Both the position numbers and the translations under genes were made by a program. From Candidatus Latescibacterota bacterium (GTDB lineage Bacteria > Latescibacterota > UBA2968 > UBA8231), in the NCBI GenBank assembly GCA_965242865.1, contig CBDETK010000013.1, forward strand, positions 2,912,001 to 2,976,000: a DNA stretch of 64,000 nucleotides, written 5' to 3'. Of this stretch, positions 1 to 15,720 are shown piece after piece (the first letter of the stretch is position 1; every line of letters begins with the position of its first letter). The notes below the pieces were generated by a model. That model saw only the letters and a program-made list of their open reading frames with translations. It did not search any database and was not told the DNA's origin.

Positions 1-505
1 CGTCGGGGCCGAGGTTCGGGAAGCGGGTGTGGTAGGACTGCGCCCAGCGGCCTTGGGCCAAGGTGCGCTCTTCTTCGTCCTCAATGTCGGCACTGCCGAA
101 GCGCATCTGCTCGCCGCCGTGGTCGCCATCAACGTGCATTTCCCAGCTATCGTCGCCGCCAGCCACGCCGCCCATGGCGTCGCGATCGTAGAAGTCGTCA
201 AAGCGCTCCATCATAAAGTAGAGGCTGTTGTTCGACTCGCTCCAGCCGACGATGATGCGGAAGTTCAAGTCGCCGAAATCGGCCGGCTTTTCGCCGTTGA
301 ACGCGGTGTGCTCGGCAAAGGAAATTGAGTATTCCTCGGGCACGATCGCCCATTCGGACAAGTCGCCATCCAGCGTTGGCTCGAGGCCGGCCGGCCACTG
401 GAAGGCCGTGCGCACAGCCCCCTCGGGCACGTGCGCCGTAGCCGTGGCGACGACGCCCATGCACAGGGCCAGTGCGAGCAAAACAGTGATTCTCTGCAAA
501 ATCAT
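1..505 (-). CDS. Secreted hypothetical protein, CBM9/DOMON-like (runs off window start)
   Basis: Not in the ORF track. Hand translation: MILQRITVLLALALCMGVVATATAHVPEG...PTLDGDLSEW...FRIIVGWS..NSLYF...DDSWEMHVDGDH. Signal peptide, LDGDLSEW motif, AAGGAGG directly upstream. Confidence 0.7.
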   Translation of the reverse strand, partial: MILQRITVLLALALCMGVVATATAHVPEGAVRTAFQWPAGLEPTLDGDLSEWAIVPEEYSISFAEHTAFNGEKPADFGDLNFRIIVGWSESNNSLYFMMERFDDFYDRDAMGGVAGGDDSWEMHVDGDHGGEQMRFGSADIEDEEERTLAQGRWAQSYHTRFPNLGPD

Positions 506-612
506 CCTCCTTGGTTAAGGGTCCTATCTTCTGAGTTAAAACAAATGCTTCTGTTGCGCGACCTGATGGCCGCTACTGCCCTCGGGCAACGACCTCCTTT
601 CTTGGTTGTAAT

Positions 613-2145
613 CTACGGGAGTGTTTGCAAGTGCGCGATGCGGCTCTGCGCCGCGGCCAGCGCCTTGTCGTCGCCGCGCCAGTGCCGGACAAAGGCCCCG
701 TAGGCCAGGTGCGCGGCCGCGACCGCGCCTTGTTGCTCGTAGGCTTGGCCCAGCGCGTAGTGGGAGCGCGCATGCGTGGAATCGCGCCGCACGACCTCCT
801 CAAACTGGGCGATGGCCTCGGCCAAGGACTCGCGCCGGGCCAAGGCCATGCCCAACCCATAGTACGCGTCGCCCAGCTCGGCGTTGCAAGCAAGGGCAGC
901 TCGATAGGCGTCAATGGCTTTTGCCAAATCGCCCCGCAGGGCATGGACATTGCCCAAGGCATTGTGCGCCTTGGCGTAGCAGGCGTCGAGGGCGAGGGCG
1001 CGAGCAAACGCTGCCTCGGCCTCGGCCCAACGCTGCTTTTGGGCGTGGGCAAAGCCCATGGTAAAATGCGCTTCGGGCGCATGCCGGCCCCGCGGTTCGT
1101 GCGCCGCGATGGTGCCAGCCAAGTGCGCGGCGCGCTCCACATCACCCTGCCGCAGGTGGAGCTGGACCACCGCGGCCAGCGCGTCAACGTGCTCGGGCGC
1201 GCGGCTGAGAACCTCCTGATACGTGTTCAGCGCGTCCGCGTAGTGCCCCAAGCGCGTCTGCGCCCGGCCCAGCTCCAACCGCGCTTCCACATTGCCGGGA
1301 TCGCGCACCAACGCCTTTTCTAAGGCCTCCTCTCGATCCGCCAAGCCGAGCAAACCCTCTAGACGCACGAGCATGGCTTCGGCTTCGTCGTAGCGGCCTT
1401 GGGCCGAATACAAATTCGCCAAGTCGTGGTACGCCGCGCCGTAGTGGGCGTCGAGGGCCACGGCCCGGTTGAGCACCTGCGCGGCTGCTTCGTACCGCTT
1501 TTCGTTTAAGTAGAGCCGACCCAAGTCCCGCCAGATTTCTTTGCGCTCCGGCGCCAACTCGGCCGCTTCCACCAACACCTCTTCCGCACGCACACTGCGG
1601 CCCTGTTGGCTGTAGAGCAAGGCTAGGGCCTGCCTCGCCTCCACATCTTGGGGGGCGATGTACAGTGCCTTCAGCAGGGCCTCTTCGGCGCGCTCGTATT
1701 GCCCTTGCTCCTTTGCCAGAAAGGCCAACAGGCGATAGGAGCTAGGCGATTGGGGATCGAAACGCAACGCGGCTTCTACGGCCGCTACGGCCTGCGGGTA
1801 GCGGCCGGCTTCGAGGTGGGCAATGGCCAAGTTGTGATAGGAGGGGATATACGTCGAATCCAGCGCAATGGCCCGGGCAAAGTGCGGGGCCGCGGCCGCG
1901 CTCTTGCGCTGCAAATGCGCCAAGCCGAGGTAAAAGTGCGCGTCGCGGGACAGGGAATCGCGGCGGATGGCCTCTTGATATACGGCCGCGGCTTGGTCGT
2001 AGCGGCCCTGATCCAAATACGTCCTCCCCACCGCGAGCAAAGGCTCGCCTGCTGGCGGCTCTTGCCGCGCTTGGCCGCATCCCCCCAGCGAGAGAAAGGC
2101 GAGGAGGGCGAGGAGGGCGAGGCGATCCACGGGCGAAAAGGACAT
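613..2145 (-). CDS. Tetratricopeptide-repeat lipoprotein
   Basis: Lipobox-like LGGC after a hydrophobic stretch; many TPR units (AHFYLG, AYHDLA, AHNALG, AYYGLG). Confidence 0.9.
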   Translation of the reverse strand: MSFSPVDRLALLALLAFLSLGGCGQARQEPPAGEPLLAVGRTYLDQGRYDQAAAVYQEAIRRDSLSRDAHFYLGLAHLQRKSAAAAPHFARAIALDSTYIPSYHNLAIAHLEAGRYPQAVAAVEAALRFDPQSPSSYRLLAFLAKEQGQYERAEEALLKALYIAPQDVEARQALALLYSQQGRSVRAEEVLVEAAELAPERKEIWRDLGRLYLNEKRYEAAAQVLNRAVALDAHYGAAYHDLANLYSAQGRYDEAEAMLVRLEGLLGLADREEALEKALVRDPGNVEARLELGRAQTRLGHYADALNTYQEVLSRAPEHVDALAAVVQLHLRQGDVERAAHLAGTIAAHEPRGRHAPEAHFTMGFAHAQKQRWAEAEAAFARALALDACYAKAHNALGNVHALRGDLAKAIDAYRAALACNAELGDAYYGLGMALARRESLAEAIAQFEEVVRRDSTHARSHYALGQAYEQQGAVAAAHLAYGAFVRHWRGDDKALAAAQSRIAHLQTLP

Positions 2146-2216
2146 GTCGTAGATTCTTTTTAGAGTGGCGAGTGCTTGTCGGTATTATATAGTATGTACC
2201 TACCAACTAAGTCAAG

Positions 2217-2334
2217 AAAGAAAGTGCCTCGCAATTTGGCGTTTTTCGGCCGGGCGGCGGTCCGTTTCCTCGCGCTCTTTTTTCCGTTCGCAAGCTGCGA
2301 GCCCCCGCTCCCGCAACCCCAAGCGGACGCCGCG
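2217..2334 (+). repeat. Left copy of 118-bp direct repeat bounding the island; encodes a 38-aa stub of the beta-helix gene (GTG 2224 to TAG 2340)
   Basis: Identical to 12223-12340 except one G/A difference (tttttcggcc vs tttttcagcc). Confidence 0.95.
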
Positions 2335-2434
2335 ACATAGGGCGTCAGCGGCACTGCGGGCGACGATCCCATCGAGGTCGCCGTGCTAGTTTGGCGTCCG
2401 CCTTCCGGGTGCTCAGAGGCGCGGAGGTCTGCGA

Positions 2435-3535
2435 CTATCGTTCCCGCTTTCTATAGAGCTCTTCCATGGCGTCTTGCAACAAGCGGTTGAAGTTGATTCG
2501 GCGATTGTAGCACCGGCGATAGGCATCCACTCGGCTCAACGTCTCTTGGTAATAGCTCGGCACCGCGTACAGCCGCACGATTTCAGTGGCCATCTCTTCT
2601 GTGTTGCCGACTAGCCGTATGGAGCGCATCCGGTCGAATTCGGCTAGTTCCCGGATGCCAATCGAATCGAAGGATACTACCGGCTTGCCGCAATGGATTG
2701 CTTCCAAGGCAAAAATGCCAAACGCTTCCACGTCGGCTGTCGAGACGACGCAAAGACACGCCGCGAACTGTTTTCTCACCTCGGCGTCAGACAGGGATGT
2801 TCGGTTGAAGTGAATTGGCCGTCCAGCCCGTTCATTAGCTTGTACGAGTTCCCTAGTGTATGCGGGATACAGTGAGTCGTCCAGGCCTCCAGAGACGCGG
2901 ACCCCGATGCCATAGCCGTGCAAGCGGCGGGCTAACTGTATAACCGCGTCGAGGTTTTTGCGCGGTGCTATTCTCGTCGGGCAAAAGGCGAAGGGACGCG
3001 CTGTGGCTCCAGCCGCCGACTTCCATATTCCATGGCGGATTTCGTCGTCGGCCTTGGTGGGCAGGTTGTAGCGCACCCAGATCGAATCCAATCCAAAGTG
3101 GCGTCGCAAGAATTGCTGGAAAAACCGGGCAAAGACCACGACGCCTAGTAGGTTGACCTCGTGTAGTAGGCGCAGGCAGCGGGCCTTTGTTTCCGATGGT
3201 AGTTCCACGACCGTCTCGAATGGAACCAGCACCGTATCGGCGGCTACCTGTTCCTTGGCGACCAGTTGCAACGCGGCGAACCCACAGGCAAATACGATGT
3301 CGGCGGCTTGGAGGTCTCGACGTAGCTCTACCGGCAGTTCGCATTCTTGTGGACTGAATCGGTAGTCGAGCTTGCCGCGAATCAGGTCCGCATTGGTTAT
3401 ACAGCGCACCGCTTGGTGCCGCTTTCGCACATAGTCGTCTATCGACCGAATGACTTTCTCCGCACCCCCTTCCAGTTCGTACAGATAGGGGGCGATCAGT
3501 ACCGCTTTGTCTTTATCGGGTGCGATCGATTCCAT
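2435..3535 (-). CDS. Glycosyltransferase, GT4 (GT-B) family
   Basis: GGAEKV near the N-terminus, RIAPRKN, and the GT4 signature EAFGIFALEAIHCGKPVV. Confidence 0.88.
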   Translation of the reverse strand: MESIAPDKDKAVLIAPYLYELEGGAEKVIRSIDDYVRKRHQAVRCITNADLIRGKLDYRFSPQECELPVELRRDLQAADIVFACGFAALQLVAKEQVAADTVLVPFETVVELPSETKARCLRLLHEVNLLGVVVFARFFQQFLRRHFGLDSIWVRYNLPTKADDEIRHGIWKSAAGATARPFAFCPTRIAPRKNLDAVIQLARRLHGYGIGVRVSGGLDDSLYPAYTRELVQANERAGRPIHFNRTSLSDAEVRKQFAACLCVVSTADVEAFGIFALEAIHCGKPVVSFDSIGIRELAEFDRMRSIRLVGNTEEMATEIVRLYAVPSYYQETLSRVDAYRRCYNRRINFNRLLQDAMEELYRKRER

Positions 3536-3539
3536 CGGA

Positions 3540-4193
3540 CTAAGGCTCCAAGTTAGAATCGGTTAGTGCGTCCAAATGGGCGCGATAGGCCCAGCCTTTA
3601 AGCACACCGCGCAATCCACCGGCTTCGTCATGTAGTTCGATTTGGCTGACGGCCCCGTTGGGAAAGTCAGCGGCCAACAGGGCTGCCAGATCGGCTTGCG
3701 GGCACAAGTCTTTGATCGTGGTGTTGAATAGCCCGCCGTGGCCGACAATCACGATGTGTTCGCCCCAGCGGTTGGCTACCGCCTGCCGCAGTCCCGCCTG
3801 CATCCGGCCCCACAGCGCGTGGTAATTTTCGCCATTGGGGAAGGCGGCGGCGTGGTCGCCGGCATACCACGCTGCGAAGATGCGGTCGTGGAGCGTCCAA
3901 GCGGCTTGGGTGGGCGGCTCTCGTTCCAAGCGGCCGACATCGACTTCGCGGAAGGCTTCGACGATATGGACCGGGAATTGGTGTGGACCGGCAATGCACA
4001 CGGCGGTTTGCTGCGCCCGCTGCAAGGGCGAGGCATAGACCGCCGCGATGGGGAACGACGCGAGGTACGCGGCCGTGCAGTGCGCCTGTCGCCAGCCTAA
4101 CGGCGTGAGCGGATAGTCCACGATGCGATGGGAAAACTCGCCGGTCTGATTAGCGCGGTTCTCTCCGTGACGCACCAGCCACACCGTGTTCAC
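3540..4193 (-). CDS. Histidine phosphatase (phosphoglycerate mutase-like) family protein
   Basis: LVRHGEN, ASPLQRAQQTA, FPNGE and VGHGG motifs. Confidence 0.9.
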   Translation of the reverse strand: MNTVWLVRHGENRANQTGEFSHRIVDYPLTPLGWRQAHCTAAYLASFPIAAVYASPLQRAQQTAVCIAGPHQFPVHIVEAFREVDVGRLEREPPTQAAWTLHDRIFAAWYAGDHAAAFPNGENYHALWGRMQAGLRQAVANRWGEHIVIVGHGGLFNTTIKDLCPQADLAALLAADFPNGAVSQIELHDEAGGLRGVLKGWAYRAHLDALTDSNLEP

Positions 4194-5254
4194 CGACTCA
4201 GTGCCTTCAAGACGCGCCCGAGCAGCGGCTGCTCCTCGGCGGCCAGCGCGGCGAGCGTCCCGCTAGCCCGCGTGAGAGTGTCGGGCCGCTGATGCGTTTT
4301 CCAACGCAACAGCACTAGACGCAGCCTGCGTACCTTTCGCTCGATTGCACCAAAGCGCATCCCAAGCTGCTCCTCTGGATCGAGATAGCCCTGCGCTTCC
4401 ATGTACTGCAACCGCGCCTGCATACACGTTTTGTGTTCCCATAGGATGCGCCACGAGATGTCGCGGTAGGCGGCCGGATTTTTCAGTTCGCGCTGGAGAA
4501 ACCGATAGATGGCCGTGCCCCAAAAGCCGCCCTCTCGCGGCACGGCTAATAGCCGGTAGCGCTGCGACGTGTCGGACGCAGACAGATAGTCGGTCAACTG
4601 TTCGGCCACCGCACAGGGGTCAAAGGGATATGGCGAGTCGGGCAAATACTTGTAGAGGAACACTCGGGGCCGGTCTTCCATCGCTTGAAGAAACCACGGC
4701 GGCAGCGACCGGCCGGCTTGCAACGCCTGCTGAATGTGGCCTTCGCGGGTGAACGAACTCGCTTGTTCCACCACGTCAAACGGCATGTGAGAGATTGCGT
4801 AGCCGCCCTGTTCGTCGAAGCCGGACAGCACCAACGTGCGCTCCTCGGTGTCATAGCCAGACACGAGTACTTCGTGGATGAAGTGGTGCCGCTGATAGTG
4901 CGGTCGGTTGGGCAGATAGAAGAAGTCGACATCCGTCTGGACGTAGTAGCCCCGGTCAATACACGAGACGATCCACGGGACGAAATCAGCGGTGCCCAGC
5001 CCTAACACTTGGCGGTCGATGGTCTGGACGTCGAGGAAGGGGCAGGTGGAAAAATACACATGGCGCACCTCATGGCGCGTGCTAAAGGGTTGGGTGTAGA
5101 ACTTCAATTCTTCGCCGGGGAAATTGAACAGTTGAATGTGAGTGCTGTATAGCCACGGCAGGTAGGCATCGGCTTGGGCGAGGATGGACAGCGGATACGT
5201 ATTGAACAAATAGGAACAGATTGGCGGCGAGTGCTGTGGTAGGGTGCGTTGCAT
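4190..5254 (-). CDS. BtrH-like (papain/NlpC-fold) protein, putative ACP-dependent acyltransferase
   Basis: GYYVQTDVDFFYLP...Y..HHFIHEVLVSGYD matches the BtrH_N pattern (D.yyLp...H..H..l.GYD); lies directly downstream of the ACP gene. Confidence 0.6.
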   Translation of the reverse strand: MQRTLPQHSPPICSYLFNTYPLSILAQADAYLPWLYSTHIQLFNFPGEELKFYTQPFSTRHEVRHVYFSTCPFLDVQTIDRQVLGLGTADFVPWIVSCIDRGYYVQTDVDFFYLPNRPHYQRHHFIHEVLVSGYDTEERTLVLSGFDEQGGYAISHMPFDVVEQASSFTREGHIQQALQAGRSLPPWFLQAMEDRPRVFLYKYLPDSPYPFDPCAVAEQLTDYLSASDTSQRYRLLAVPREGGFWGTAIYRFLQRELKNPAAYRDISWRILWEHKTCMQARLQYMEAQGYLDPEEQLGMRFGAIERKVRRLRLVLLRWKTHQRPDTLTRASGTLAALAAEEQPLLGRVLKALSR

Positions 5255-5262
5255 GATGGAAC

Positions 5263-5520
5263 TTACACCCTCTGCTTGCCGACGACGTATTCAGCCAGCG
5301 TCTCTACCGAATCAAACAATTCGGCGGTCAGTTCGTCGTCTTCGACCGTGATGCCAAATGCCTCCTCTATGACGGAGACGATCTCTAAAGTGGCCATTGA
5401 ATCGAGGTCCATGCCTCCACCGAACAGCGTCTCGTCGTCGGGAATTTCCGCTGGATCCACGTCCAATCCAAGCGCGGCGACGATCAGGCACTTGATCTGC
5501 GCTTTCAGGCACCCGGACAC
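5263..5520 (-). CDS. Acyl carrier protein
   Basis: 85 aa, acidic; LFGGGMDLDSM phosphopantetheine serine motif and IEEAFGI; GAGGAG 8 nt upstream of GTG. Confidence 0.92.
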   Translation of the reverse strand: MSGCLKAQIKCLIVAALGLDVDPAEIPDDETLFGGGMDLDSMATLEIVSVIEEAFGITVEDDELTAELFDSVETLAEYVVGKQRV

Positions 5521-7397
5521 GATGCGGGCTCCTCGGCAAAGTGGTTGACCACCGTATCCACCATCCGCTGCTGGCCTTTCTCCGACAGAATCGACACTGC
5601 TGGTAGGCCAAAGCGATCTTCGAGCCGACCCAAGGTACGTTTGATGTGCTCCGCAGTCATCGGACGTGGCTTGATGAATGTGCGCCCGTAAGCGGCGCGG
5701 ATGTGCTTTTCTTGGTCGCTCATGGCCAATAGCAGCGTCGGTGCTTTGGCGAGGGCGCGCAGAGCGTCAATGGTATCTTGGATATACTCGTCGGCGTCAA
5801 CGCTGTTGACCACGAGGATACACGCATCCGGCTTCGTGCCTAGCAGAAAGGCTGTCGAAGTCAGCGAATGGGTGCGGTGTTCATGCACATCGTAGGGAAT
5901 GGTGCCCGACTGCGAGCCGACCAAGATGAGATCGGGTTTCTGCTGCTGGCTAAGCTGCCGCAGTTTGTAATCCAGATAGGGCACGTAGTATTGCAAGGGC
6001 ATTTCCACATTGGAGGCATAGCCCATAGGAAAAGCGAGGTCCATGCCAAACAGCACCGCATGGTGCTCGGTGCCGATTTGACCGACTCGATAGCCGAGGC
6101 GCAAAAGGCGGCGACGCAGGATCAGTTGCAGGGTGAATTTGCCCTGTTGGGAACTAGTGCCAAACACGCCGAGCACCGGCACATCAACCGGACTGTAAGC
6201 CGGCTCAGTTTGGAGGGCTTGCCGTACGTCATCGGACGAGACCGAGGGATACGTCAAGTGCAGTCCCTTCTTGTCGGCGAGTTCGTACAAATCGCCATAC
6301 TTGTCTTGGGGCACGGCGAGGAAACTGAAAACGTGGCAGTCGCGCTTTAGTGCGGTCTCAATGGCCGTGCGTAGCATGTCTTTCTTGTCAATCCGCCCTA
6401 ACTGATCGACATAGCCGAGGATGAGCGTATCCGCCTTCTTGAGGGCCGCAGCAAGCCGGGGCCGGATGCGTACCCCGATGGAAGGTAAGCCAAGCACCTT
6501 GCCCGCGTCCTTGGCCACGAGCCCCTTGCCCACCGGATCGGCGATACCCGCGATCTCGAAAGCGAGTAAATCCCGCGCTCGGACCAAGGAGTGCATCTCT
6601 TTGTTGAACGGGTAGAGTGCCGCCTTCTGAATCCAGGAAAAACTTGAAGGGTTAGCAGGAGACTCCGGCGTGACCGCTGGGCGCGTACTTTGGAGCAGTT
6701 CCGGCGTCCCTTTCAACGCATTGGTCTGCAGTACCTCGCGCACCTGTTCCAATGATGCCCCCGGATGCGCTTGGCGAATCAAGGCAACCATGCCGGTGAC
6801 GTGCGGCGCGGCAAAGCTGGTGCCCGACACCATCAGATACGACGGATCGGTCCAGCAGACCCGCTGCATATCACCCCGGGCGACGCATTCAATCGCGTGG
6901 CCCGGACGATAGTAATACCCATAGCGTCCGCGGACCTTGCCTCCTGCAACGCCGATAACGTCGGACAAGACCGCAGGATAGCTTTCTCGCCCGTCGTTGT
7001 GCTCGGCAGCGACGAGAATAACCCCGGCTCCACGAGCTCGGCAACAGACCTCGGCGAGCCGGTCGCGGAAGGCAACGTCCGTCGTGCCTAAGCTGAGATT
7101 GACCACATCCATCCGCTGCTCAATCGCCCAGCGGATCGCCGCTAGCAGAGCCGAACCATCGGCGGTCAGGGATTCGTCGAAAATGCGGACATCGTACAGA
7201 GTCGCGGTCGGCGCGATTTGGCGGATGATGCCCGCGCAAGCCGTGCCGTGCCCCGCACCAATAGCTGCAGGCGGAGACTCCGAGTCCAAGAGGACCTCGT
7301 GAACTGCGCCGATCTTTTCGTGCGTCGGGTCAACACCCGAGTCAATAACGGCGACACGGACGGGATGAACTGCTTTGGCTAGGTTCGTCAGGAGCAT
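5505..7397 (-). CDS. Subtilisin-like S8 peptidase fused to a DUF1611/TIGR04066-like P-loop domain
   Basis: Catalytic triad motifs VAVIDSG, GHGTACAG, SGTSFAAPHV; no signal peptide. C-terminal VPVLGVFGTSSQQGKF...GYRVGQIGTE...PDLILVGSQSG. Confidence 0.85.
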   Translation of the reverse strand: MLLTNLAKAVHPVRVAVIDSGVDPTHEKIGAVHEVLLDSESPPAAIGAGHGTACAGIIRQIAPTATLYDVRIFDESLTADGSALLAAIRWAIEQRMDVVNLSLGTTDVAFRDRLAEVCCRARGAGVILVAAEHNDGRESYPAVLSDVIGVAGGKVRGRYGYYYRPGHAIECVARGDMQRVCWTDPSYLMVSGTSFAAPHVTGMVALIRQAHPGASLEQVREVLQTNALKGTPELLQSTRPAVTPESPANPSSFSWIQKAALYPFNKEMHSLVRARDLLAFEIAGIADPVGKGLVAKDAGKVLGLPSIGVRIRPRLAAALKKADTLILGYVDQLGRIDKKDMLRTAIETALKRDCHVFSFLAVPQDKYGDLYELADKKGLHLTYPSVSSDDVRQALQTEPAYSPVDVPVLGVFGTSSQQGKFTLQLILRRRLLRLGYRVGQIGTEHHAVLFGMDLAFPMGYASNVEMPLQYYVPYLDYKLRQLSQQQKPDLILVGSQSGTIPYDVHEHRTHSLTSTAFLLGTKPDACILVVNSVDADEYIQDTIDALRALAKAPTLLLAMSDQEKHIRAAYGRTFIKPRPMTAEHIKRTLGRLEDRFGLPAVSILSEKGQQRMVDTVVNHFAEEPASCPGA

Positions 7398-7678
7398 CGT
7401 CTGATTAAGCTTAGGACCGCCGAATCTTCATCTAGTGCGATGTCCAAGGCTTCCGGTCCGAGCAAAAATGTCGAATCGATAAACCATTCAACCGGCTGAC
7501 CATACAGAGCGGCCAACCGGAGCAACTCCAGCGTCGAGACGGCTCGCTCACCCGATTCAATGCGGCTGATCGCCGATTGGTCGCGGCCAATTTCCGCACT
7601 GGCGGTCGCTTGGCTGATATGCTGACTTCTACGGGCCAAACGCAAGCGGCGGGCGAGCTCTTCAGGGGTTATGGGCAT
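7388..7678 (-). CDS. XRE-family helix-turn-helix regulator
   Basis: RLRLARR..ISQ...A.EIG.DQSAISRIESGER; stop overlaps the S8 gene start. Confidence 0.88.
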   Translation of the reverse strand: MPITPEELARRLRLARRSQHISQATASAEIGRDQSAISRIESGERAVSTLELLRLAALYGQPVEWFIDSTFLLGPEALDIALDEDSAVLSLIRRCS

Positions 7679-7744
7679 AATAGATGCGCCGGATAATTGG
7701 GTGGATGTAGCATCATTTTGTTATGCGTAATACGGCAGGTTAGC

Positions 7745-8611
7745 TTACTCTCGATTAAAGTAGAAGGCGAGTTCCGGCTGTTGGCGGGCAGATATGGCAA
7801 TCGTTGAATCCATGCGGATCGCCGTCGCTAAATCCTCGCTGGCCAACGTCATCTCGCCCTGCCGGGCGCGGATGAGTGCTCTGTAATACCACGCAACGCC
7901 GGTTTCGTTGTCGATCGATATAGCTCGATTGAGCGCGGCCAGCCCTTCTTCTAGGCGACCTGTACTTCTAAAGAGAATGCTTCGCTTGATCCACGACGCG
8001 AGGTGCTCAGGATCGTGCTGCAAGGCGATCTCAAGTGCTGCTTCAGCAGCCGCATAGTCTCTTTCTTGGAGATGAAGCGAACCAATAAGTCCCCAGAAAT
8101 ACGTGAAATGCGCGTCGGTAGAGTCGGCGACTAAGCAGGCTTTGTAAACATGTACTGCTTCTTCTACTTGTCGTAAATCGCGCAGAAGATCGCCCGTTCT
8201 CTGGCATAATCCCACGTTTTTGGGATCTAAGCGGAACGCAGCCGAGTAAAACTCAAGGGCTTGTATTGAATCCTCCATGGCTAGACAGGCATCGCCCTTG
8301 CTCTTCCACAGCCAAGGATCGTCGTGGTCGTACTGTATAGCAGTATTTAGGGCATCGAGCGCACGATCATATTCACCCAGCATTATATAACACTTTGCAA
8401 GCACATTCCAAGCGCGGGGCGAATCACCCTCTAAGGCAAGGAATTGTTCATAAGCGCGAAAGGCCATTCGGTGTTCATTGATCGCCATAAGTCGATCGCC
8501 ATGCCGCAAGTAGGTAGCCCCATCCGATAGATCATACCTCACCATTAGATATAACAGTGAAAGGATGGTTATGGAATTGATCAAAACGGCCGAGAGGACC
8601 CATTTTTTCAT
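7745..8611 (-). CDS. Membrane-anchored TPR protein
   Basis: One N-terminal hydrophobic helix, then TPR units (AWNVLA, LWKSKG, AWYYRA); ATGA overlap with the upstream CPBP gene. Confidence 0.85.
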   Translation of the reverse strand: MKKWVLSAVLINSITILSLLYLMVRYDLSDGATYLRHGDRLMAINEHRMAFRAYEQFLALEGDSPRAWNVLAKCYIMLGEYDRALDALNTAIQYDHDDPWLWKSKGDACLAMEDSIQALEFYSAAFRLDPKNVGLCQRTGDLLRDLRQVEEAVHVYKACLVADSTDAHFTYFWGLIGSLHLQERDYAAAEAALEIALQHDPEHLASWIKRSILFRSTGRLEEGLAALNRAISIDNETGVAWYYRALIRARQGEMTLASEDLATAIRMDSTIAISARQQPELAFYFNRE

Positions 8612-9351
8612 AGCATAGACTCCAACATATAAACCCTATATAAGAAGACGAAGGCTGGGACCATATTGGCAACGCCGTGTATCACAATACAGGCTCCAAT
8701 AGAACGCGATCGTTCATAGTAGAGAACAAGCACGAGACCTAATCCCAAATGGGGGAGGAGGTCCAAAAATTTCTCGTCCATATTGTAGTGGCATAATGCA
8801 AACAGTATGACATTTGCCACAACAGCCCACATAAAAGGTAAATGCTTTCTGAGATAGGGATACAGAATACCTCTAAATAGCCACTCCTCCACTAAGGGAA
8901 TGACAACTACACCTTGTAATATCCTTATAACCGATAAATCGGGTAGGTACATTACCGGCGGAATATAAGCAACCGATTTTGATAGATTCGCTAGGACCAT
9001 AATTGACACGACTAAGGAGGCTGCTAGCCAGATCTCCTTCCCGAAACCAACCAAAGATAGCCTTAGCCGATTAGGCACGGTTCCTACAATGAGACGAAAA
9101 CAGACAAGCATTAAAATCATCGCGACCGCATGGGAACCAAAAAAGCGAAGAAGGACGATTTTCATATCCCGAAACAGCAACGACTCTTCGGCCCAGTCGG
9201 CCCAGTTATCGACATAAGCGTTCCTGAGCGCAATAAAAAAGAATAAGATGGCGAACTGTAGGGTGACCAAGATGAAGTTCCATGGACACTCCCATTCTTG
9301 TCTTCGCATGGTGTCCCAAGTATTGAGCACAGTGCTATAGACCGATTTCAT
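8608..9351 (-). CDS. CPBP/Abi (type II CAAX) intramembrane protease
   Basis: PLVEEWLFRG, LFALCH and IVIHGVAN motifs; multi-pass membrane protein. Confidence 0.9.
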   Translation of the reverse strand: MKSVYSTVLNTWDTMRRQEWECPWNFILVTLQFAILFFFIALRNAYVDNWADWAEESLLFRDMKIVLLRFFGSHAVAMILMLVCFRLIVGTVPNRLRLSLVGFGKEIWLAASLVVSIMVLANLSKSVAYIPPVMYLPDLSVIRILQGVVVIPLVEEWLFRGILYPYLRKHLPFMWAVVANVILFALCHYNMDEKFLDLLPHLGLGLVLVLYYERSRSIGACIVIHGVANMVPAFVFLYRVYMLESML

Positions 9352-9548
9352 ATCCGCGTACCAAGCGTAGGCGATACCAAATCCAAGGACATGCTGTGAA
9401 GTAGCCCACTTTTTCGTACATCAGATCAATAGCGGAGTCAACAATGGTAATGTTGACTAGATGTCCAGAAGCATCAAACGGTTCTGATTGGTTGATTCGA
9501 CCTATGGGTTCCCTAGGGATATAAGCATCTATGGATGTACAGCGGTGC

Positions 9549-9605
9549 TACGTGTGATCCGTAAAACTTGTCACTTTATCAAGCGAACTATTCACGGATC
9601 ACGTA
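9549..9605 (-). terminator. Stem-loop just 3' of the precursor-like gene
   Basis: GTGATCCGT (9554-9562) pairs perfectly with ACGGATCAC (9594-9602), extended by tacg/cgta; no clear U-tract. Confidence 0.5.
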
Positions 9606-9606
9606 C

Positions 9607-9987
9607 TTACCTGGGCCTAGTATTGTCTTGCCTCGCCTCTTGCGTTCCAGAACCTTGAGACGCCAGAGAATCCAGTACTGCCTTAGAGCTTGAAACAGAC
9701 AGGTGAGGTCCAAGATTTGGATCATGAGTCACGCTTAGATTGAAACCTCCTCCGAAGCCAGCCGATATGCTACCAGTTGCGGAGCTATCGGAACCTACGG
9801 TTAATTGAGCACCTGCCCCAGGAGTACTCAAACCAACGCCACCAGAGGACGACCAGTGTTGGTGAGTTCTGGAAGGATCATGGCAACTAAGGCAAGCATT
9901 GGAAGGATCGACCTGAAACGTTTCGTCATGGTAGGCTTGAATAGCCTTGCGATCCATCGTCGAGTACGGTTTGATGAGTTTTCTCAT
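9607..9987 (-). CDS. Putative bacteriocin/RiPP precursor peptide
   Basis: AAGGAGG 5 nt before ATG 9987. Leader MRKLIKPYSTMDRKAIQAY, then CLSCH and a Gly/Ser-rich body; flanked by two CPBP genes. Confidence 0.65.
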   Translation of the reverse strand: MRKLIKPYSTMDRKAIQAYHDETFQVDPSNACLSCHDPSRTHQHWSSSGGVGLSTPGAGAQLTVGSDSSATGSISAGFGGGFNLSVTHDPNLGPHLSVSSSKAVLDSLASQGSGTQEARQDNTRPR

Positions 9988-10042
9988 CATTTCCTCCTTG
10001 TGTTGATGAGTTAATTGTGGCAGCGATTCTTATATCCCTAGT

Positions 10043-10810
10043 TCACCCATAGGTCATAGGTCGAAGGATATTTGTCAAAAATCCTATAACGAAGTTACCT
10101 ACTGCATGAATAATTACTAACGGAATTATAGATCGTAATCTTTCTAAAAGGAAACACTGAATGACACCAAACGGGAAAATGGCAATAGCCACTATGTAAT
10201 TATCGTAGTATAACTGTGGATGCCAAATAGTAAATAAAAGAGAAGATACAGTCATACTTGGTATAATTCCGAAGTATCTTCTAAAGATATTGTAGCAAAT
10301 TCCTCTGAAAAACAACTCTTCTGGAATAGGCGGAAGCACCGTAAAAAGAAATATAAATATTAATATCATCTGAAAATGGGGAGACTTCCCTCCTGAAAAA
10401 GTAAGAGCCCCATAAGGTTTTCCTGTTAGTGTAAACATTCCGAAGTAGTAAGCACATCCTAAAGCGCATCCAATAACGATGGCTCCACCGTACCAGTATT
10501 TGGAAAAATTGAAATGCCAAATATAGTTGTAAGTCGGCAATCTATCTGTACGTACAAAGTACAGTAATATCGAGAGAAATAGAATATAGCTTATAATAAA
10601 CTGAGTAAATAGACCAGCAAACAAAGCCCATTCTATACTCCATGAATTGCCGAAATTCGATAGACGGATATTGGTAAAATATTTAGCCTCTATCCATATT
10701 TTAAAGCAATAACTTGCCAAGTGGGGAACTACCATTACCAGAAGAATTCCCCAGCTTATTTTTCCGACAGAAGATATAGTGTGATCTTTAGGTTTATTGA
10801 GTTGATACAT
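10043..10810 (-). CDS. CPBP/Abi (type II CAAX) intramembrane protease
   Basis: PIPEELFFRG, LLFTIWH and IIHAVGN motifs; strongly AT-rich. Confidence 0.9.
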   Translation of the reverse strand: MYQLNKPKDHTISSVGKISWGILLVMVVPHLASYCFKIWIEAKYFTNIRLSNFGNSWSIEWALFAGLFTQFIISYILFLSILLYFVRTDRLPTYNYIWHFNFSKYWYGGAIVIGCALGCAYYFGMFTLTGKPYGALTFSGGKSPHFQMILIFIFLFTVLPPIPEELFFRGICYNIFRRYFGIIPSMTVSSLLFTIWHPQLYYDNYIVAIAIFPFGVIQCFLLERLRSIIPLVIIHAVGNFVIGFLTNILRPMTYG

Positions 10811-10826
10811 TGACTTAAATCCTTTG

Positions 10827-10892
10827 TTAGATACTTGCCATTCTATCGTAGAGTTGAACGTATATACCTCCTCGTATCAATAGTTCCTCATG
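10827..10892 (-). pseudogene. C-terminal remnant of an ABC exporter ATP-binding protein
   Basis: Hand translation HEELLIRGGIYVQLYDRMASI* matches the typical ABC-exporter tail G(T/S)HEELL.. GG.Y..LY. Confidence 0.7.
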
Positions 10893-11844
10893 TACATACA
10901 GCTACATACAGCCGCGCTAGCTGCCCAATCTCGATCTTGGGCAGGTCGGTTTCCTTAACCATAATTCGTGCTTGCCAGCCATCGGTCTGAGCCACTTCGA
11001 GCACCGTTTCCCCCGCTTGGAGACGATCTCCCACCCGTTGCTCTAGTTGCCCGGTCAGCACCGTGCCCGCGGCCGGTGGCCAGAGCGTGTTCTTGGCCAG
11101 CCGGTTTTCTAACCGCTGGTACTCCTGCTCGATCTTCTCGCGCTGTTTCTCCAAGGTGTGGAGTTCGGCGGCTCGTCCTTGTACGGCCTGAAGCCGCTGC
11201 TGGCTCTGCTCCAACTCGGCTTCGGCATCTCTCAGCCAAGCGTTGCCCAGCCGTACCGGCAGAAGCTGCTCCAACGGTTGACGGACAAAGCTGGTCGGCA
11301 ACAAGGCGGCTGTTGAGTAGATGGTTTGTTCGGCCACGACCTGCTCCAATTGGATGCGCCTGCGCTCTACTTCCCGCTGGGCGTGGACGACCTCGGCTTG
11401 GCGAATGTTGCGCTCCTGCGCCATCTGCTGCTGAATGGCTCGCTGCTGGCTCCGGTTGACTCCGAGATCCTTTTCGGCCTGCCGGAGTTGGATGCGCCAG
11501 TCGGTATCGTCGAGTGTAACCAGCGGTTGCCCCTTTTCTACCTGTTGCCCCTGTCGGACGTGCATCTGCTGGATAATCCCCGCAATCTCGGCCTTGACCC
11601 GACGCCGATGGCGCGGCTCAACGACGCCCGTGCCCTCTACAGTCATATCCATGCTGAAATACCAACTCAGGACGCCAGCGAGTGCCAGCAAGCACCCCAC
11701 CAACCCCAGAATCACCAAGAGAAACGAGCGCACGAACCGAAAGCCCGGCCCGTGAAATTCTTCCCCTATACTCAGGGCATTACTACGGCTATCGTGCCGT
11801 TCGTTTTGCCCCAGTACTTGAGATTGAGCGGTTAGAGCCGGCAT
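10888..11844 (-). pseudogene. HlyD-family membrane fusion protein, 3'-truncated
   Basis: TM helix, VEGTGVVEP, lipoyl-like halves (VRQGQQVEKGQPL, VGDRLQAGETV) and coiled coil. Ends abruptly at IGQLARLYVAVCT*, inside the beta-barrel domain. Confidence 0.8.
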
Positions 11845-12222
11845 CTTCTAACTCCATGCGCTAAAAGGAAAGTCCCCGAGCACAAGCGGCTCAAGGTTGA
11901 TTTTGTATGGGGAAGGCCCGCACCGCGCAACCACGCATACCGGCGCACCCATAGCGGCTCCCAAGGCATACGGCACGGCGGCAATAGAGCCGTACAGACC
12001 GCTGCCCACTCGGCACCGAATGGCTCGCCAAGCGACAACAAAAGGCTTGTTAAGAGAAAATTTAGTGCGCCCTGCCGCAAGCCGCGTCCCTCCCATGGCG
12101 ATTGCGGCCTGCGACCCGTTTGCCTAATGTGAATATTCTTTAGCTGAATGACCATGAGTAGGAATGAGACCATACCTCCTAATGGTGCGACAGCACGGGT
12201 GCGCCGCTAGTGAACCACTATC

Positions 12223-12340
12223 AAAGAAAGTGCCTCGCAATTTGGCGTTTTTCAGCCGGGCGGCGGTCCGTTTCCTCGCGCTCTTTTTTCCGTTCGCAAG
12301 CTGCGAGCCCCCGCTCCCGCAACCCCAAGCGGACGCCGCG
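12223..12340 (+). repeat. Right copy of 118-bp direct repeat
   Basis: 117/118 identical to 2217-2334; forms the 5' end of the intact downstream gene. Confidence 0.95.
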
Positions 12341-13402
12341 TACCACGTCTATCCGGGCGACAGCATCCAAGCGGCCCTCGAAGCGGCCGCCCGCGACCCA
12401 ACCCACAAGACCGTCAAGGTTCACGCGGGGACCTATCGGCCACAACGGCCCGGCCAAGCGCTGATCTTCTTCGCGGCCCGCCACGATGGCATCGCGCTCG
12501 AAGCGGTGGGGCGCGTGGTGCTGACGGCCGCCCATGCCGAGCGCGCCGACCCCAAGGCGGCCAGTTACCCGGCCCTCGTCAACCACGTGGTCTTTTTTGG
12601 CGATGGCATCTCCCGGCGCACCGTCCTACGCGGTTTCACCATCACCGGCGCCAACAACTTTGCCAACCGCAACGAAGGCCCTGACCCCATGCAGCCGGAC
12701 TCCTCCAACGGCGTGCGCTGGGAAAAGGGACTGTTCTTTTACGCCGATGGCGGCGGCATCAAGGTATTTGGCCGCTCCTATCCAACCCTCACCGATCTAG
12801 CAATCCACGACAACTACGCCAGCCCCTGCGGCGGCGGCATCTCCATTGAGCATCGGGGGTTCGACGCCGAGGCCGTGCTGATTGAGAACTCGGTCTTCCG
12901 CAACAACAGCTGCCAAATCACCGGCGCGGCCGTCGATGTGCTGCCCGGCAGCGCGGCCGTGCTCGACAACTGCCTCTTCGTCGGCAATGTCGCCAATCTC
13001 GGCCCTGACTACGTGGGCCGCGGCGGCCGCGAATACAACAAGATGCACGGCTCTGGGGCGTTGACGGTCTTTCCCGGGGCGCACGTCGAAGTGCGCGACT
13101 GCACCTTTACGGACAACTGGAACGGCGTGGACGACAAGGGGCGCGGCAGTGCGTACCGCAATACCATTTTCTGGATGAACGTGCGCGCTGGCGGCATGGC
13201 CCTCGGCCGCCGCTACGAGGTCGATCTGCTCGACAGCCGCCGCTTCAGCGGCTGCTTCGTCCGCGGCCAGATTGACGACCTACGCGGCACCTTGGACCCG
13301 GAGCGCAATGTGCTCCAAGCACCCGACCCGCAATTCGACGAGCACTATCGGCCTCAAGCTCCGGCCTACGCCGGGGTAGGCTATCGGCCAGCAGGGGAGT
13401 AG
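12230..13402 (+). CDS. Right-handed parallel beta-helix lipoprotein
   Basis: Lipobox-like FASC; SIQAALEAA..TVKVHAGTY, LRGFTITGA, repeated GGGI / F.NN / GGA turns. Probable GTG start at 12230 (ORF track starts 12164). Confidence 0.8.
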   Translation: MPRNLAFFSRAAVRFLALFFPFASCEPPLPQPQADAAYHVYPGDSIQAALEAAARDPTHKTVKVHAGTYRPQRPGQALIFFAARHDGIALEAVGRVVLTAAHAERADPKAASYPALVNHVVFFGDGISRRTVLRGFTITGANNFANRNEGPDPMQPDSSNGVRWEKGLFFYADGGGIKVFGRSYPTLTDLAIHDNYASPCGGGISIEHRGFDAEAVLIENSVFRNNSCQITGAAVDVLPGSAAVLDNCLFVGNVANLGPDYVGRGGREYNKMHGSGALTVFPGAHVEVRDCTFTDNWNGVDDKGRGSAYRNTIFWMNVRAGGMALGRRYEVDLLDSRRFSGCFVRGQIDDLRGTLDPERNVLQAPDPQFDEHYRPQAPAYAGVGYRPAGE

Positions 13403-13519
13403 CCCCAGGGCCGCTTGGATTGGGGCGACGAGCACCCGCTTTGATAAAAAAACCGCCGTTGCCTATACTGTGTCGGCCTTTCCGCACCATATCCTCATCT
13501 TTCATGATCGTTCCACCTT

Positions 13520-15712
13520 ATGCTGAAACTGCTCTCGACCTTTGCCGTCCTCTCGCTGGCGGCACCGCATCACCCCGGGGCACAGGGCCCTTCGACTATC
13601 CGCCAACAGCGGCTCGAACTGGACCGCACGGTCTGGTCGGATGAGCGTCTCGCCCAGCAGCACGAGGCCGTGTTTGTCGCCTTGTGGGATCGCCTGCGCG
13701 CGGCCGAGCAGGCCCGGCCGGTGCTGGCCGCTTTTCCCTTTGCTCAACTGCGGATCGGCACCCTACAGGACAGCGTCGAGCACGACTGGGGTATCACCGA
13801 AACGCACTACGGCGGCCCGCCGCGGACGCTCGACCCCGGGCAGTGGGCGGCCCTGCTCGAGCAATGGGAAGCAGAGGGCTTTGTTCTCGAACAATCCGAA
13901 TGGCACCACAAGCGGTTCACCCCGGCCGAGGTCGGGCCGGGCCGATCGTTAATAGAACTGAAACTACACGTCAAAAACCGGGCTAGGCGTCTAATCGTCA
14001 GCGGCGACCTGTCCGTCACTTACAACGAGCAGCAAGACGAGGCCGGGCACTATATACCCGCCACCATCGAGGCTGCGAATCTGACCCTGACCGACCGGCG
14101 CGCCGCCCCCGCTTTTGTCGCCTCGGCTGTCTTGGCGGACGACACCGCGCTCTCGCCCCTCATCGCCGCCGACCTCGACCGCGACAGTCTCGACGACTTG
14201 CTCGCGCTGGGCGCCAACCTGCTCTACCGCAACCAAGGTGGACGCTTTGCGCCCGAGCCGCTGTTGGCGCATCCGCCCCGGGGCGGCCGCATTGAAGTGG
14301 CGCTCTTGGCCGATTTTACCGGCGATGACGCTCCCGACCTAGTCGTCGGCGGTCCCGGGCAGCTCTTGGGCCTCTACGAGGGCGGCGAGGGCTTTGACCA
14401 ACCCGGCTTGGCCATTGCGACCCGGCCCCTGCAATACCCCGAAGCCATGAGCGCGGGCGACATCGACTCCGATGGCGACCTCGACCTGTGGGTCGGCCAG
14501 TACCGGCCGCCCTACCGCGAGGGCCAGATGCCTACGCCCTACTACGACGCCAACGACGGCTATCCCGCATACTTGCTGCGCAACGACGGGCGCGGCCGCT
14601 TTACCGACATCACGATCCGGGCGGGCCTCCAAGTCAAGCGCAAGCGGCGCACCTACAGCGGGTCCTTGGCCGACCTCGACGGCGACGGCGACCTCGACCT
14701 GCTCGTCGTCAGCGACTTCGCCGGCATTGACCTGTACCACAACGACGGCACCGGCACCTTTGCCGACATCACCGCTCAGGCCGTCAGCGAGGCATCGACC
14801 TTTGGCATGTCCCACGTCTTTGGCGACTACAACGCCGACGGCCGCCTCGACATGTACGTGGTGGGCATGAGTTCCACCACGGCGCGCCGCCTCGACTACC
14901 TCGGCCTCGGGCGGGAGGAGTACCCCGAGCACCAGCAGCAGCGCCGGGCTATGGGCTTTGGCAACCGGCTTTACCTCGGGCGCGAGGACGCCCGGTTCAG
15001 CATGGCCCCAAGCACGGAGCAAGTGGCGCGCACCGGGTGGTCTTGGGGCGTGGCCTCCGCGGACTTCGACAACGATGGCGACGACGAAATCTACGTGGCC
15101 AACGGCCACCTCAGCGGCGAGACCGCCCAAGACTACTGCACCACTTTCTGGACGCACGACATCTACACCGGCGGCTCGGAACCCAACCCGCAAATAGCCG
15201 AATTTTTCGACGAGACGATTGCGGACTGGAACAGCGCGGGCATCTCGTGGAACGGCTTTGAACACAACAAGCTCTACCTAAGCGGAGGAGGGCACTCCTT
15301 TGTCGAGGTCGGCTATCTGATGGGCGTGGCCTTTGAATTTGATGCGCGCACCGTGCTCGACATGGACGTAGATGGCGACGGGCGCGTGGACCTATTGGTC
15401 AGCGAGTGGGCCGGCACCCCGCGCCGCGAGCGGGTTCACGTCTTGCGCAATGTTTGGCCCGGCGCCAACAACTGGCTCGGCGTGCGCCTGCGAGGGGCCA
15501 TCGGCGCACGCATCACTCTGCACACGCCTCGCGGCAACCAGACCGAGTGGGTGTACACCGGGGAGTCCTTTGACGCGCAACGACCGCCGGTCCGCCATTT
15601 TGGCCTCGGCGGCAACGAGCAGGTTGACGCAATTGAAGTGCGGTGGGCCGACGGGCACGTGACGACCCTCGCCCAGCCGGCAATCAACCGCTATCACGAA
15701 CTGGAACCCTAG
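13520..15712 (+). CDS. CRTAC1-family protein (FG-GAP/VCBS repeats plus ASPIC/UnbV domain)
   Basis: Signal peptide; repeated D.D.DG.LDL motifs; GWSWG; C-terminal HFGLG...IEVRW. Confidence 0.88.
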   Translation: MLKLLSTFAVLSLAAPHHPGAQGPSTIRQQRLELDRTVWSDERLAQQHEAVFVALWDRLRAAEQARPVLAAFPFAQLRIGTLQDSVEHDWGITETHYGGPPRTLDPGQWAALLEQWEAEGFVLEQSEWHHKRFTPAEVGPGRSLIELKLHVKNRARRLIVSGDLSVTYNEQQDEAGHYIPATIEAANLTLTDRRAAPAFVASAVLADDTALSPLIAADLDRDSLDDLLALGANLLYRNQGGRFAPEPLLAHPPRGGRIEVALLADFTGDDAPDLVVGGPGQLLGLYEGGEGFDQPGLAIATRPLQYPEAMSAGDIDSDGDLDLWVGQYRPPYREGQMPTPYYDANDGYPAYLLRNDGRGRFTDITIRAGLQVKRKRRTYSGSLADLDGDGDLDLLVVSDFAGIDLYHNDGTGTFADITAQAVSEASTFGMSHVFGDYNADGRLDMYVVGMSSTTARRLDYLGLGREEYPEHQQQRRAMGFGNRLYLGREDARFSMAPSTEQVARTGWSWGVASADFDNDGDDEIYVANGHLSGETAQDYCTTFWTHDIYTGGSEPNPQIAEFFDETIADWNSAGISWNGFEHNKLYLSGGGHSFVEVGYLMGVAFEFDARTVLDMDVDGDGRVDLLVSEWAGTPRRERVHVLRNVWPGANNWLGVRLRGAIGARITLHTPRGNQTEWVYTGESFDAQRPPVRHFGLGGNEQVDAIEVRWADGHVTTLAQPAINRYHELEP

Positions 15713-15720
15713 TCCGTCCA

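Follow-up and report, generated by a model that had tools for sequence, protein, structure and literature searches.

Candidate ribosomal-peptide maturation cassette with a subtilisin–DUF1611 fusion on a strain-variable island of a Latescibacterota bacterium

What, if anything, is made by a gene cluster that sets a small peptide gene beside a subtilisin-like protease, an acyl carrier protein (ACP) and a transacylase homologue? The question is raised by eleven co-directional genes on the minus strand at positions 2435–11844 of a 64,000-nucleotide stretch of DNA (hereafter the window) from a Candidatus Latescibacterota bacterium (assembly GCA_965242865.1, contig CBDETK010000013.1, positions 2,912,001 to 2,976,000). 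A reading made from the letters alone (the sequence-only reading) had proposed an undescribed ACP-linked system for a ribosomally synthesized and post-translationally modified peptide (RiPP), in which a peptide loses its leader, is acylated from the ACP and is possibly glycosylated. The best overall explanation, which we hold to be probable and still well short of assured, is an uncharacterized ribosomal-peptide maturation cassette on a strain-variable island, with the processing steps proposed below. Its central enzyme is a single protein that joins a Peptidase S8 (subtilisin) domain to a DUF1611 domain (the fusion), and the core of the family comprises precursors with a two-motif leader, the fusion, an ACP that is usually translationally coupled, and an ABC exporter.

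The fusion has relatives in abundance. Among 8,000 candidates scored, 995 were recovered at E ≤ 0.001, and both Pfam domains are present in each of the best 120. The DUF1611-like domain taken alone yields 1,330 representatives at 50% identity (E ≤ 0.001); 116 of the best 150 are of fused length (at least 560 residues), and a regular expression for the serine motif matched 12 of these 116, a result that we treat as a flaw of the pattern and not as data. In a scan of species genomes, 590 candidate stretches yielded 521 confirmed relatives, from which we kept 80 loci with about 40 full-length fusions; Latescibacterota supply most of them, and the others belong to Gemmatimonadota, Minicystis rosea and an Acetatifactor. 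Of 168 Latescibacterota genomes, 88 encode the fusion (E ≤ 1e-30), with up to seven matches in a single genome, and the window genome itself holds three paralogous loci: that of the window, locus B (L004) and locus C (L005).

To define the company that the fusion keeps, six-frame segments of 43 loci (the window, its two paralogues and L006–L045) were clustered. The fusion is present in all 43, an ACP in 32 and an ABC gene in 31, followed by two subfamilies of BtrH-like genes (a in 15 loci, b in 9), CPBP genes (13), TPR genes (10) and HlyD genes (9). The picture is sharper in the 24 complete loci, defined by at least 8 kb on both sides, where 22 have an ACP, 19 an ABC gene, 17 a BtrH-like gene of either subfamily, 7 a CPBP gene, 7 an HlyD gene and 5 a TPR gene. 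The BtrH-like genes span phyla, and the CPBP–TPR pair recurs among the loci, as do genes for rhodanese, MauE/DoxX, redoxin, GNAT, MacB-type and RND pumps and sigma-54 regulators. Recurrence of the gene set in dozens of genomes makes it more than a chance grouping.

Small open reading frames (ORFs) beside the ABC or CPBP genes of these loci lack mutual BLAST similarity and share an N-terminal pattern, M-x-x-L-x-K-P-x-R, then 5–9 residues, then V-L-A-Y-x-x-E. The cores that follow are unrelated (Cys-rich, Gly/Ala/Ser-rich, hydrophobic, or long and acidic), and no conserved C-terminal residue or follower was seen across the cores compared. We curated 28 such leader peptides in 22 of the 43 loci, every one on the strand of the fusion. 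Searching with the curated model brought eight more matches at E < 1, each sharing the strand of the fusion, and the first opposite-strand match came at E 1.7; the first automatic iteration of the hidden Markov model (HMM) had shrunk to 16 matches in 13 loci, losing divergent leaders. Across the 6-Mb window genome, the full leader model gave four matches at E ≤ 6e-7, all 2–9 kb from the three fusion genes, and its next match at E 2.4. Because peptides of that genome were part of this model, it was rebuilt without them; among 128,207 six-frame segments, the locus-B peptide then ranked first (E 1.1e-5) and the window ORF second.

Judged by its sequence, the 127-residue ORF of the window is thus a genuine precursor candidate. 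AGGAGG lies upstream of its start. Behind its stop codon is a hairpin with a 12-bp stem (−30.4 kcal/mol, z −3.07; 2 of 200 shuffles fold equally well), which has no T-run after it, was not called by the terminator scan and may stabilize or attenuate the transcript. The leader family and the co-occurrence of modules sustain the earlier claim of a RiPP-type cassette with a leader-bearing peptide: homologous S8–DUF1611, ACP and BtrH-like modules do occur together with such peptides. As a separate observation, the window core starts with C-x-x-C-H (9880–9894), the form of a haem c attachment site, and a faint match to an NCBIfam decahaem cytochrome falls there (E 0.07). The motif is missing from the closest homologous peptides (L009 and L035) and may be there by chance.

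The fusion divides into a subtilisin domain (residues 1–234) and a domain of the DUF1611/DgcN fold (residues 253–620), with Pfam spans of 13–228 for Peptidase_S8 and 404–610 for DUF1611. Both domains pass their Pfam tests (101.6 bits against a cut-off of 21.8, and 45.9 against 25 for PF07755). The catalytic triad D19/H50/S194 and the P-loop G413–K420 are invariant across 33 fusion sequences. The protease domain resembles subtilases at Z 24–26, and its best named NCBIfam family is the QhpE leader protease (E 7e-43, 1–213 of 219 positions). The C-terminal half aligns end to end with TIGR04066 (2–360 of 361 positions, E 3.4e-35), a family that the sequence-only reading had named as part of clostridial CcpM loci; by profile score, this half is a distant TIGR04066 relative and not a member at NCBI's threshold.

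In an AlphaFold model of the fusion (predicted local distance difference test, pLDDT, 83.6), the C-terminal domain matches the DUF1611 structures 2g0t (Z 29.8) and 2obn (Z 28.3) and the "N-acetyltransferase DgcN" 7xrj (Z 24.2, 303 residues aligned, root-mean-square deviation 3.9), with dethiobiotin synthetase (Z 14.5) far behind. Foldseek with the whole fusion returned a list dominated by subtilisins, and DgcN was seen only by the wider fold search. Searches of PDB sequences behaved alike, the whole fusion finding subtilisins and the C-terminal domain alone finding only 2g0t (E 0.001).

A model of the fusion in complex with leader residues 1–45 reached an interface score (ipSAE) of 0.66, against 0.00 for the best control; 58 of 80 solved complexes score this high, as do 2 of 110 mismatched pairs. 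At least 75% of the contacts are common to the runs, and partner pLDDT is 51–54. Leader residues 1–7 contact fusion residues 404–408, 434–436, 489–490, 524–525 and 617–622, while leader residues 14–21 and 24–25 contact residues 19–20, 50, 102–105 and 189–195, which form the protease cleft. The contacts of residues 1–7 sit at the N-terminal edges of strands in the P-loop domain according to the secondary structure of the model, which would put this site on the side facing away from the P-loop. The prediction thus has the first leader motif docking on the DUF1611 domain while the second occupies the protease cleft. Two-site docking of this kind would explain both the two spaced motifs of the leader and the fusion of the two domains.

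Next to the fusion, the ACP passes its own test (38.8 bits against a PF00550 cut-off of 20.8), and the D/N-S attachment motif is kept in the listed ACPs of homologous loci, where the ACP gene mostly abuts that of the fusion. The window ACP also matches AsbD weakly (E 7e-5). The BtrH-like protein found no PDB sequence at E ≤ 10. Its structural model (pLDDT 77) matches CcbD (Z 13.5, 273 residues aligned), AziU3/U2 (Z 13.2, 269) and CtaG (Z 11.6, 256) over the whole length, the next entries (Z ≤ 9.2) covering the helical lobe only; Foldseek matches range from E 2e-9 to 2e-5 and include a CcbD–PCP complex. The fold thus bears out the BtrH-like identity suggested earlier, that of bipartite carrier-protein-dependent transacylases with a papain-like and a helical part. 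At least 90% of 22–23 sequences retain His127 and Asp135, and a second BtrH-like subfamily from other loci passes PF14399 outright (57.4 bits in L041). At L007 8904–10010, a BtrH-like gene has 30% G+C inside a locus of 57% G+C.

The remaining two enzymes are a family 4 glycosyltransferase (GT4), which is 81% identical to its L006 homologue over the full length, and a phosphatase whose nearest NCBIfam family is alpha-ribazole phosphatase (E 1e-28, below the cut-off). Glycosyltransferases of three unrelated types adjoin BtrH-like genes in eight loci: the GT4 of the window type in the window, L006, L007 and L028, another GT4 in L004, and a GT28-like protein in L008, L023 and L024.

Strains acquire or lose the cluster, a 10-kb island, as a single block. 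Two direct repeats of 118 nt, 99% identical and spaced 10,006 nt apart, bracket it, the repeat unit corresponding to the 5′ end of the adjacent beta-helix gene (start at 12164), and a public contig joins position 2248 straight to 12255, skipping 10,006 nt. Joining contig and flanking repeats together identify an island for which a related strain has the empty-site allele. No integrase or transposase gene was found inside the 10,006 bp. Strains also differ within the island. In one, the HlyD remnant (10894–11900) is swapped for 132 other letters, with the joint at 10893 (dominant contig of one run); in another, the contig runs past 10904 into dissimilar sequence. A tandem 10-nt duplication (10893–10912) lies exactly at the break in HlyD and the drop in G+C. 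A further contig from a related strain (depth 4.9) has an in-frame deletion of 108 nt (36 codons; 9680–9789) in the precursor core. Two runs labelled as sponge metagenome (X5 and X6) contain 66–75% of the sampled words of region 2000–12400, and their contigs align to it at mostly 95–100% likeness.

Export is where the window copy parts from its relatives. The sequence-only reading saw a type-I-secreted system with an ABC remnant; the HlyD gene is truncated and the ABC gene is absent. Translated searches (tblastn) with the 571-residue ABC proteins of the two closest loci, L009 and L035, came back empty, with no ABC similarity in positions 1–16000 of the window at E ≤ 1, and only 77 nt separate the stop codon of the truncated HlyD gene from the next start. 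The truncated protein aligns to residues 1–316 of its 422-residue L009 homologue, and G+C falls sharply near 10,900, from about 61% to 32–40%, exactly at the break. The nearest loci (L007, L009 and L035) keep an intact HlyD and ABC gene, a small ORF, a CPBP gene and the fusion, in that order in L009 and L035; the window copy must therefore have lost the C-terminus of HlyD and the ABC gene, and the low-G+C CPBP1 gene occupies the slot where relatives hold them. Low G+C is a trait of the family and no peculiarity of the window, since membrane and transport genes of the cassette are low in G+C in several genomes (L009 and L035). Each of the two paralogous loci of the same genome keeps its ABC gene. 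Because the window copy has lost its own exporter, export from it would depend on those paralogous ABC genes, or would fail.

Gene content, co-occurrence, folds and island structure are what the analysis shows; from them we infer the steps of maturation, namely loss of the leader, acylation from the ACP and attachment of a sugar. In the first, modelled docking of L-x-K-P on the DUF1611 domain would put A-Y-x-x-E in the protease cleft, and the leader would be cut. In the second, a group bound to the ACP as a thioester would be moved to an amine of the peptide by the DgcN-like domain, by the CtaG/BtrH-fold transacylase or by both. The likeliest acceptor would be the new N-terminus, because it would fit the hypervariable cores. 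In a third step, specific to the lineage of the window copy, a sugar may be attached and trimmed by GT4 and the histidine phosphatase. Producer protection or peptide processing would fall to the TPR protein and the two CPBP proteins, and regulation of the genes to the XRE protein; in relatives, the ABC protein and HlyD would export the product.

Several results weigh against this scheme. The peptide set was curated by eye and carries that bias; curated precursors are found in just 15 of the 24 complete loci, and in the leave-out test the window ORF reached only E 0.061 and the locus-C peptides were non-significant (E 4.9, ranks 8–9). None of ten precursors, that of the window included, matches TIGR04065 at E ≤ 10 with HMMER filters applied, so that the link drawn earlier to that precursor type is not supported. 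The alignments behind the complex model were the analyst's own. The scores for the two halves of the fusion lie under the curated cut-offs of their nearest named families (146.5 against 165 bits for QhpE, 121.7 against 200 for TIGR04066). The BtrH-like protein scores 25.9 bits against a PF14399 gathering threshold of 29.7, over profile positions 79–131 only; its putative cysteine column is occupied by C13 in the window protein and in none of the 15 other members of the subfamily, and residues 14–19 of the model have pLDDT below 50. No gene for loading the ACP was recognized in the island or among the annotated recurrent neighbour clusters. The pair of GT4 and phosphatase is shared with L006 only, with a remnant in L007, and so lies outside the family core. 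Finally, the window copy, lacking an ABC gene and with a truncated HlyD, may yield no exported product.

Two unrelated systems might merely adjoin on the island: a class II-like bacteriocin that is cleaved from its leader and otherwise unmodified, with CPBP proteins for immunity and the fusion acting as leader peptidase only, and a small-molecule pathway in which the ACP, BtrH-like protein, phosphatase and GT4 make an acylated amino sugar or glycolipid. Such a patchwork would suit the confinement of GT4 and phosphatase to the window, L006 and L007 and the uneven G+C along the island (32–40% at CPBP1, about 60% at the enzyme genes), and enzymes of the CtaG, BtrH and CcbD types come from non-ribosomal pathways and act on small amines or amino sugars, according to PMC12865890. 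We consider it quite unlikely, given that most loci have the ACP gene overlapping or directly adjoining that of the fusion, that BtrH-like genes recur across phyla in most complete loci, that the DUF1611 domain is physically joined to the protease and predicted to hold the leader, and that the whole block behaves as a single unit of insertion or deletion. A different objection concerns the window alone, whatever the family does elsewhere. Its copy could be a decaying relic that makes nothing useful, as the cut in HlyD at residue 316 of 422, the missing ABC gene and the differences among strains (one without the HlyD remnant, one without the island, one with the shortened precursor) might suggest. 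The other nine genes, however, are full length, free of stops and 72–89% identical to L006 or L009 homologues, every invariant residue of the fusion is present, the precursor deletion is in frame, and the two paralogous loci retain their ABC genes; decay of the window copy therefore seems unlikely to us.

The chemistry of the fusion is open to other readings as well. Its DUF1611 P-loop domain could be an ATP-dependent ligase instead of an acyltransferase, one that activates the carboxylate of the peptide and loads the peptide itself onto the ACP, after which a papain-fold ligase or a thioesterase would join an amine in macrocyclization or conjugation. The nearest folds beyond DUF1611 are dethiobiotin synthetase and the synthetase domain of CTP synthetase (Z 14.1), both carboxylate- or carbonyl-activating enzymes; the Walker-type lysine K420 is invariant, a thioesterase-like gene follows the ACP gene in the Minicystis locus (L045), and some cores (L028 and L031) are hydrophobic and about 50 residues long. 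Against these points stand the only functionally named DUF1611 structure, which is an N-acetyltransferase (7xrj), and the lack of a conserved C-terminal residue or follower across the cores; we also know of no case in which a carrier protein bears a ribosomal peptide. This reading is, in our estimate, decidedly doubtful. More broadly, the fused DUF1611 domain and the ACP might carry out thiotemplated chemistry on a ribosomal peptide, either by loading the peptide on the carrier protein for ligation or cyclization by a papain-fold ligase, or by building a carrier-bound unit onto the fresh N-terminus in step with leader cleavage. Taken together, these two options are improbable, though worth naming. 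A maturation cassette with leader cleavage and acyl transfer from the ACP remains our preferred reading.

How does such a cassette relate to known systems? The sequence-only reading compared it with clostridial CcpM/CLI_3235 loci. In PMC10731318, the SacP23 cluster of Paenibacillus polymyxa, an example of this type, has the corresponding parts as separate genes together with a radical SAM enzyme; there TIGR04066 was guessed to be "immunity", and the roles of TIGR04066 and TIGR04069 were not established in that paper. The likeness takes in a small precursor, a subtilisin, an ABC transporter and proteins of the TIGR04066 and ACP types. The Firmicute relative from Acetatifactor (L044) extends the likeness, with its fusion beside a radical SAM/SPASM maturase (TIGR04463, E 2.6e-49) in a locus that also holds a BtrH-like gene, a weak GNAT-like gene, an ACP and three ABC genes. 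In the window, by contrast, the subtilisin and the TIGR04066-like domain form one protein, the radical SAM gene (TIGR04068) is missing, the leader belongs to another family with no TIGR04065 match, and the ACP, which had been linked to TIGR04069, has no match to it at E ≤ 0.01. As four tests fail (precursor family, radical SAM, TIGR04069 and the TIGR04066 cut-off), the window locus is a related variant and not a member of the CcpM group. The expectation of no radical SAM enzyme in view held: none lies within 60 kb of the three paralogous loci, the nearest of 21 Radical_SAM matches in the window genome is about 67 kb from any of them, and among the 43 clustered loci a radical SAM cluster was seen in L044 only. 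The Minicystis locus carries a peptide, the fusion, an ACP and the thioesterase-like gene, and its ACP matches TIGR04069 weakly (E 2.7e-4, 21.3 bits against a cut-off of 70).

QhpE (NF049966), the top named family for the S8 domain, is likewise a cytoplasmic subtilisin without a pro-region, and it acts on the leader of a ribosomal peptide in the maturation of quinohemoprotein amine dehydrogenase; the window differs in lacking genes for QhpA, QhpC and QhpD and in having its S8 domain fused to DUF1611. With DgcN (7xrj) the C-terminal domain shares the two-lobed fold (303 of 331 residues aligned, 20% identity) and the fold alone. DgcN is a free-standing enzyme that uses acetyl-CoA on a free amino acid, whereas the window domain belongs to a protease fusion, has an ACP partner and, by the complex model, is predicted to engage the leader of a peptide. 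The BtrH-like protein has the papain-like N-lobe, helical C-lobe, conserved His and Asp and adjoining carrier protein gene of CtaG, BtrH, AsbE and CcbD. It departs from them in that its subfamily does not conserve the catalytic Cys and its PF14399 score is below threshold, and in its context, a ribosomal-peptide cassette instead of a non-ribosomal pathway. CtaG, AsbE, BtrH and MllDE are described in PMC12865890 as papain-like carrier-protein-dependent amide ligases with a Cys-His-Asp triad and carrier-bound donors.

Ribosomal peptides that gain an acyl or sugar-linked group after leader processing form a further point of comparison. They include lipolanthines, goadvionins, selidamides and the glycosyl-siderophore microcins, and in some cases the group comes from a carrier protein. 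These systems use GNAT-type or MceIJ-type transferases together with lanthipeptide or other core enzymes; we know of none with a DUF1611 domain or a CtaG-fold ligase.

The layout of the island is given in Table 1. Profile searches of Pfam and NCBIfam agree with the one-direction gene list drawn up earlier, the ABC remnant excepted, and the last six genes are as tightly packed as had been described, with overlaps or gaps of at most 8 nt: the XRE and fusion genes overlap by 10 nt and the fusion and ACP genes by 16 nt, an 8-nt gap leads to the BtrH-like gene, this overlaps the phosphatase gene by 4 nt, and GT4 follows after another 4 nt. The TPR and CPBP2 genes overlap by 4 nt as well. Both CPBP proteins exceed the PF02517 cut-off (65.3 and 71.2 bits against 22.4), and the glutamate/histidine motifs EExxxR, FxxxH and HxxxN are visible in both translations. 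CPBP2 is 72% identical to the L009 copy, and CPBP1 is only 28–32% identical to other CPBP proteins. Promoter and terminator scans stayed at shuffle level (8 against 7.3, and 12 against 9.3).

Table 1 Genes and other features of the island, with its bordering repeats, in window coordinates
Feature	Position	Strand	Evidence
Direct repeat, left copy, 118 nt	2217–2334	+	
GT4 glycosyltransferase, 366 aa	2435–3535	-	PF00534 E 1.8e-12; PF13692 E 5e-10
His_Phos_1, branch-1 histidine phosphatase, 217 aa	3540–4193	-	PF00300 E 7e-42
BtrH/CtaG/CcbD-fold papain-like transacylase homologue, 354 aa	4190–5254	-	PF14399 E 1.3e-5; fold matches
Acyl carrier protein, 85 aa, D-S attachment motif	5263–5520	-	PF00550 E 1e-9
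S8–DUF1611 fusion, 630 aa	5505–7397	-	PF00082 E 6e-29; PF07755 E 5.5e-12
XRE-family helix-turn-helix regulator, 96 aa	7388–7678	-	PF01381 E 7e-11; homologues in L006 and L009
TPR protein, hydrophobic N-terminus, 288 aa	7745–8611	-	
CPBP (Rce1-like) intramembrane protease homologue 2, 247 aa	8608–9351	-	PF02517 E 9e-20
Hairpin 3′ of the precursor stop codon	9554–9602	-	Folding compared with shuffles
Precursor candidate, 127 aa (126 from the second ATG)	9607–9990	-	Conserved leader; Gly/Ser/Ala-rich variable core
CPBP homologue 1, 255 aa, 32–40% G+C	10043–10810	-	PF02517 E 6e-18
Truncated HlyD-type adaptor, 318 aa of about 422	10888–11844	-	PF13437 E 4.8e-12
Direct repeat, right copy, 118 nt	12223–12340	+	

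Other loci of the family show features of their own. Locus B (L004, G000:C13:3588001-3608000) has, in this order, genes for an ACP, rhodanese, MauE/DoxX, GT4, a BtrH-like protein, a precursor, an ABC protein and the fusion, which is followed by a sensor kinase and a sigma-54-type regulator; its precursor has 47 residues and ends in four Cys and Gly. Locus C (L005, G000:C13:3216001-3236000) has two identical Cys-containing precursors of 58 residues about 3.1 kb apart, and its fusion is more divergent (36–38% identity). In a third Latescibacterota locus (L021, 10004–12055), the fusion gene stops after about 416 residues, and behind it come two ORFs (186 and 98 residues) with an inverted copy about 9 kb upstream (1096–2174); the pair looks like an insertion element that cut the gene. 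A divergent subgroup of fusions (38–40% identity) from one genus (G074, G076, G080, G086, G089 and G090) carries a single in-frame TGA each, which may be a recoded position, a selenocysteine position or a shared break.

The literature searched assigns no function in peptide maturation to TIGR04066, TIGR04069 or the DUF1611 domain. The locus belongs to a large family of unstudied chemistry, and the nearest catalogued system, CcpM/CLI_3235, is itself uncharacterized. The extreme diversity of the cores (Cys-rich, Gly/Ala-rich, hydrophobic) suggests a promiscuous and engineerable system. The family offers a defined leader with a compact enzyme that combines protease and recognition module, and a carrier-protein link to papain-fold ligases, which have been described only recently and for non-ribosomal pathways. 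Were the thiotemplated reading true, it would define a new class of RiPPs, one in which ribosomal and carrier-protein logic are combined with no radical SAM, YcaO or lanthipeptide enzyme and which is spread over hundreds of protein clusters. Solving the chemistry of the family could add a class of modified peptides, a leader-recognition module and a function for a long-standing domain of unknown function.

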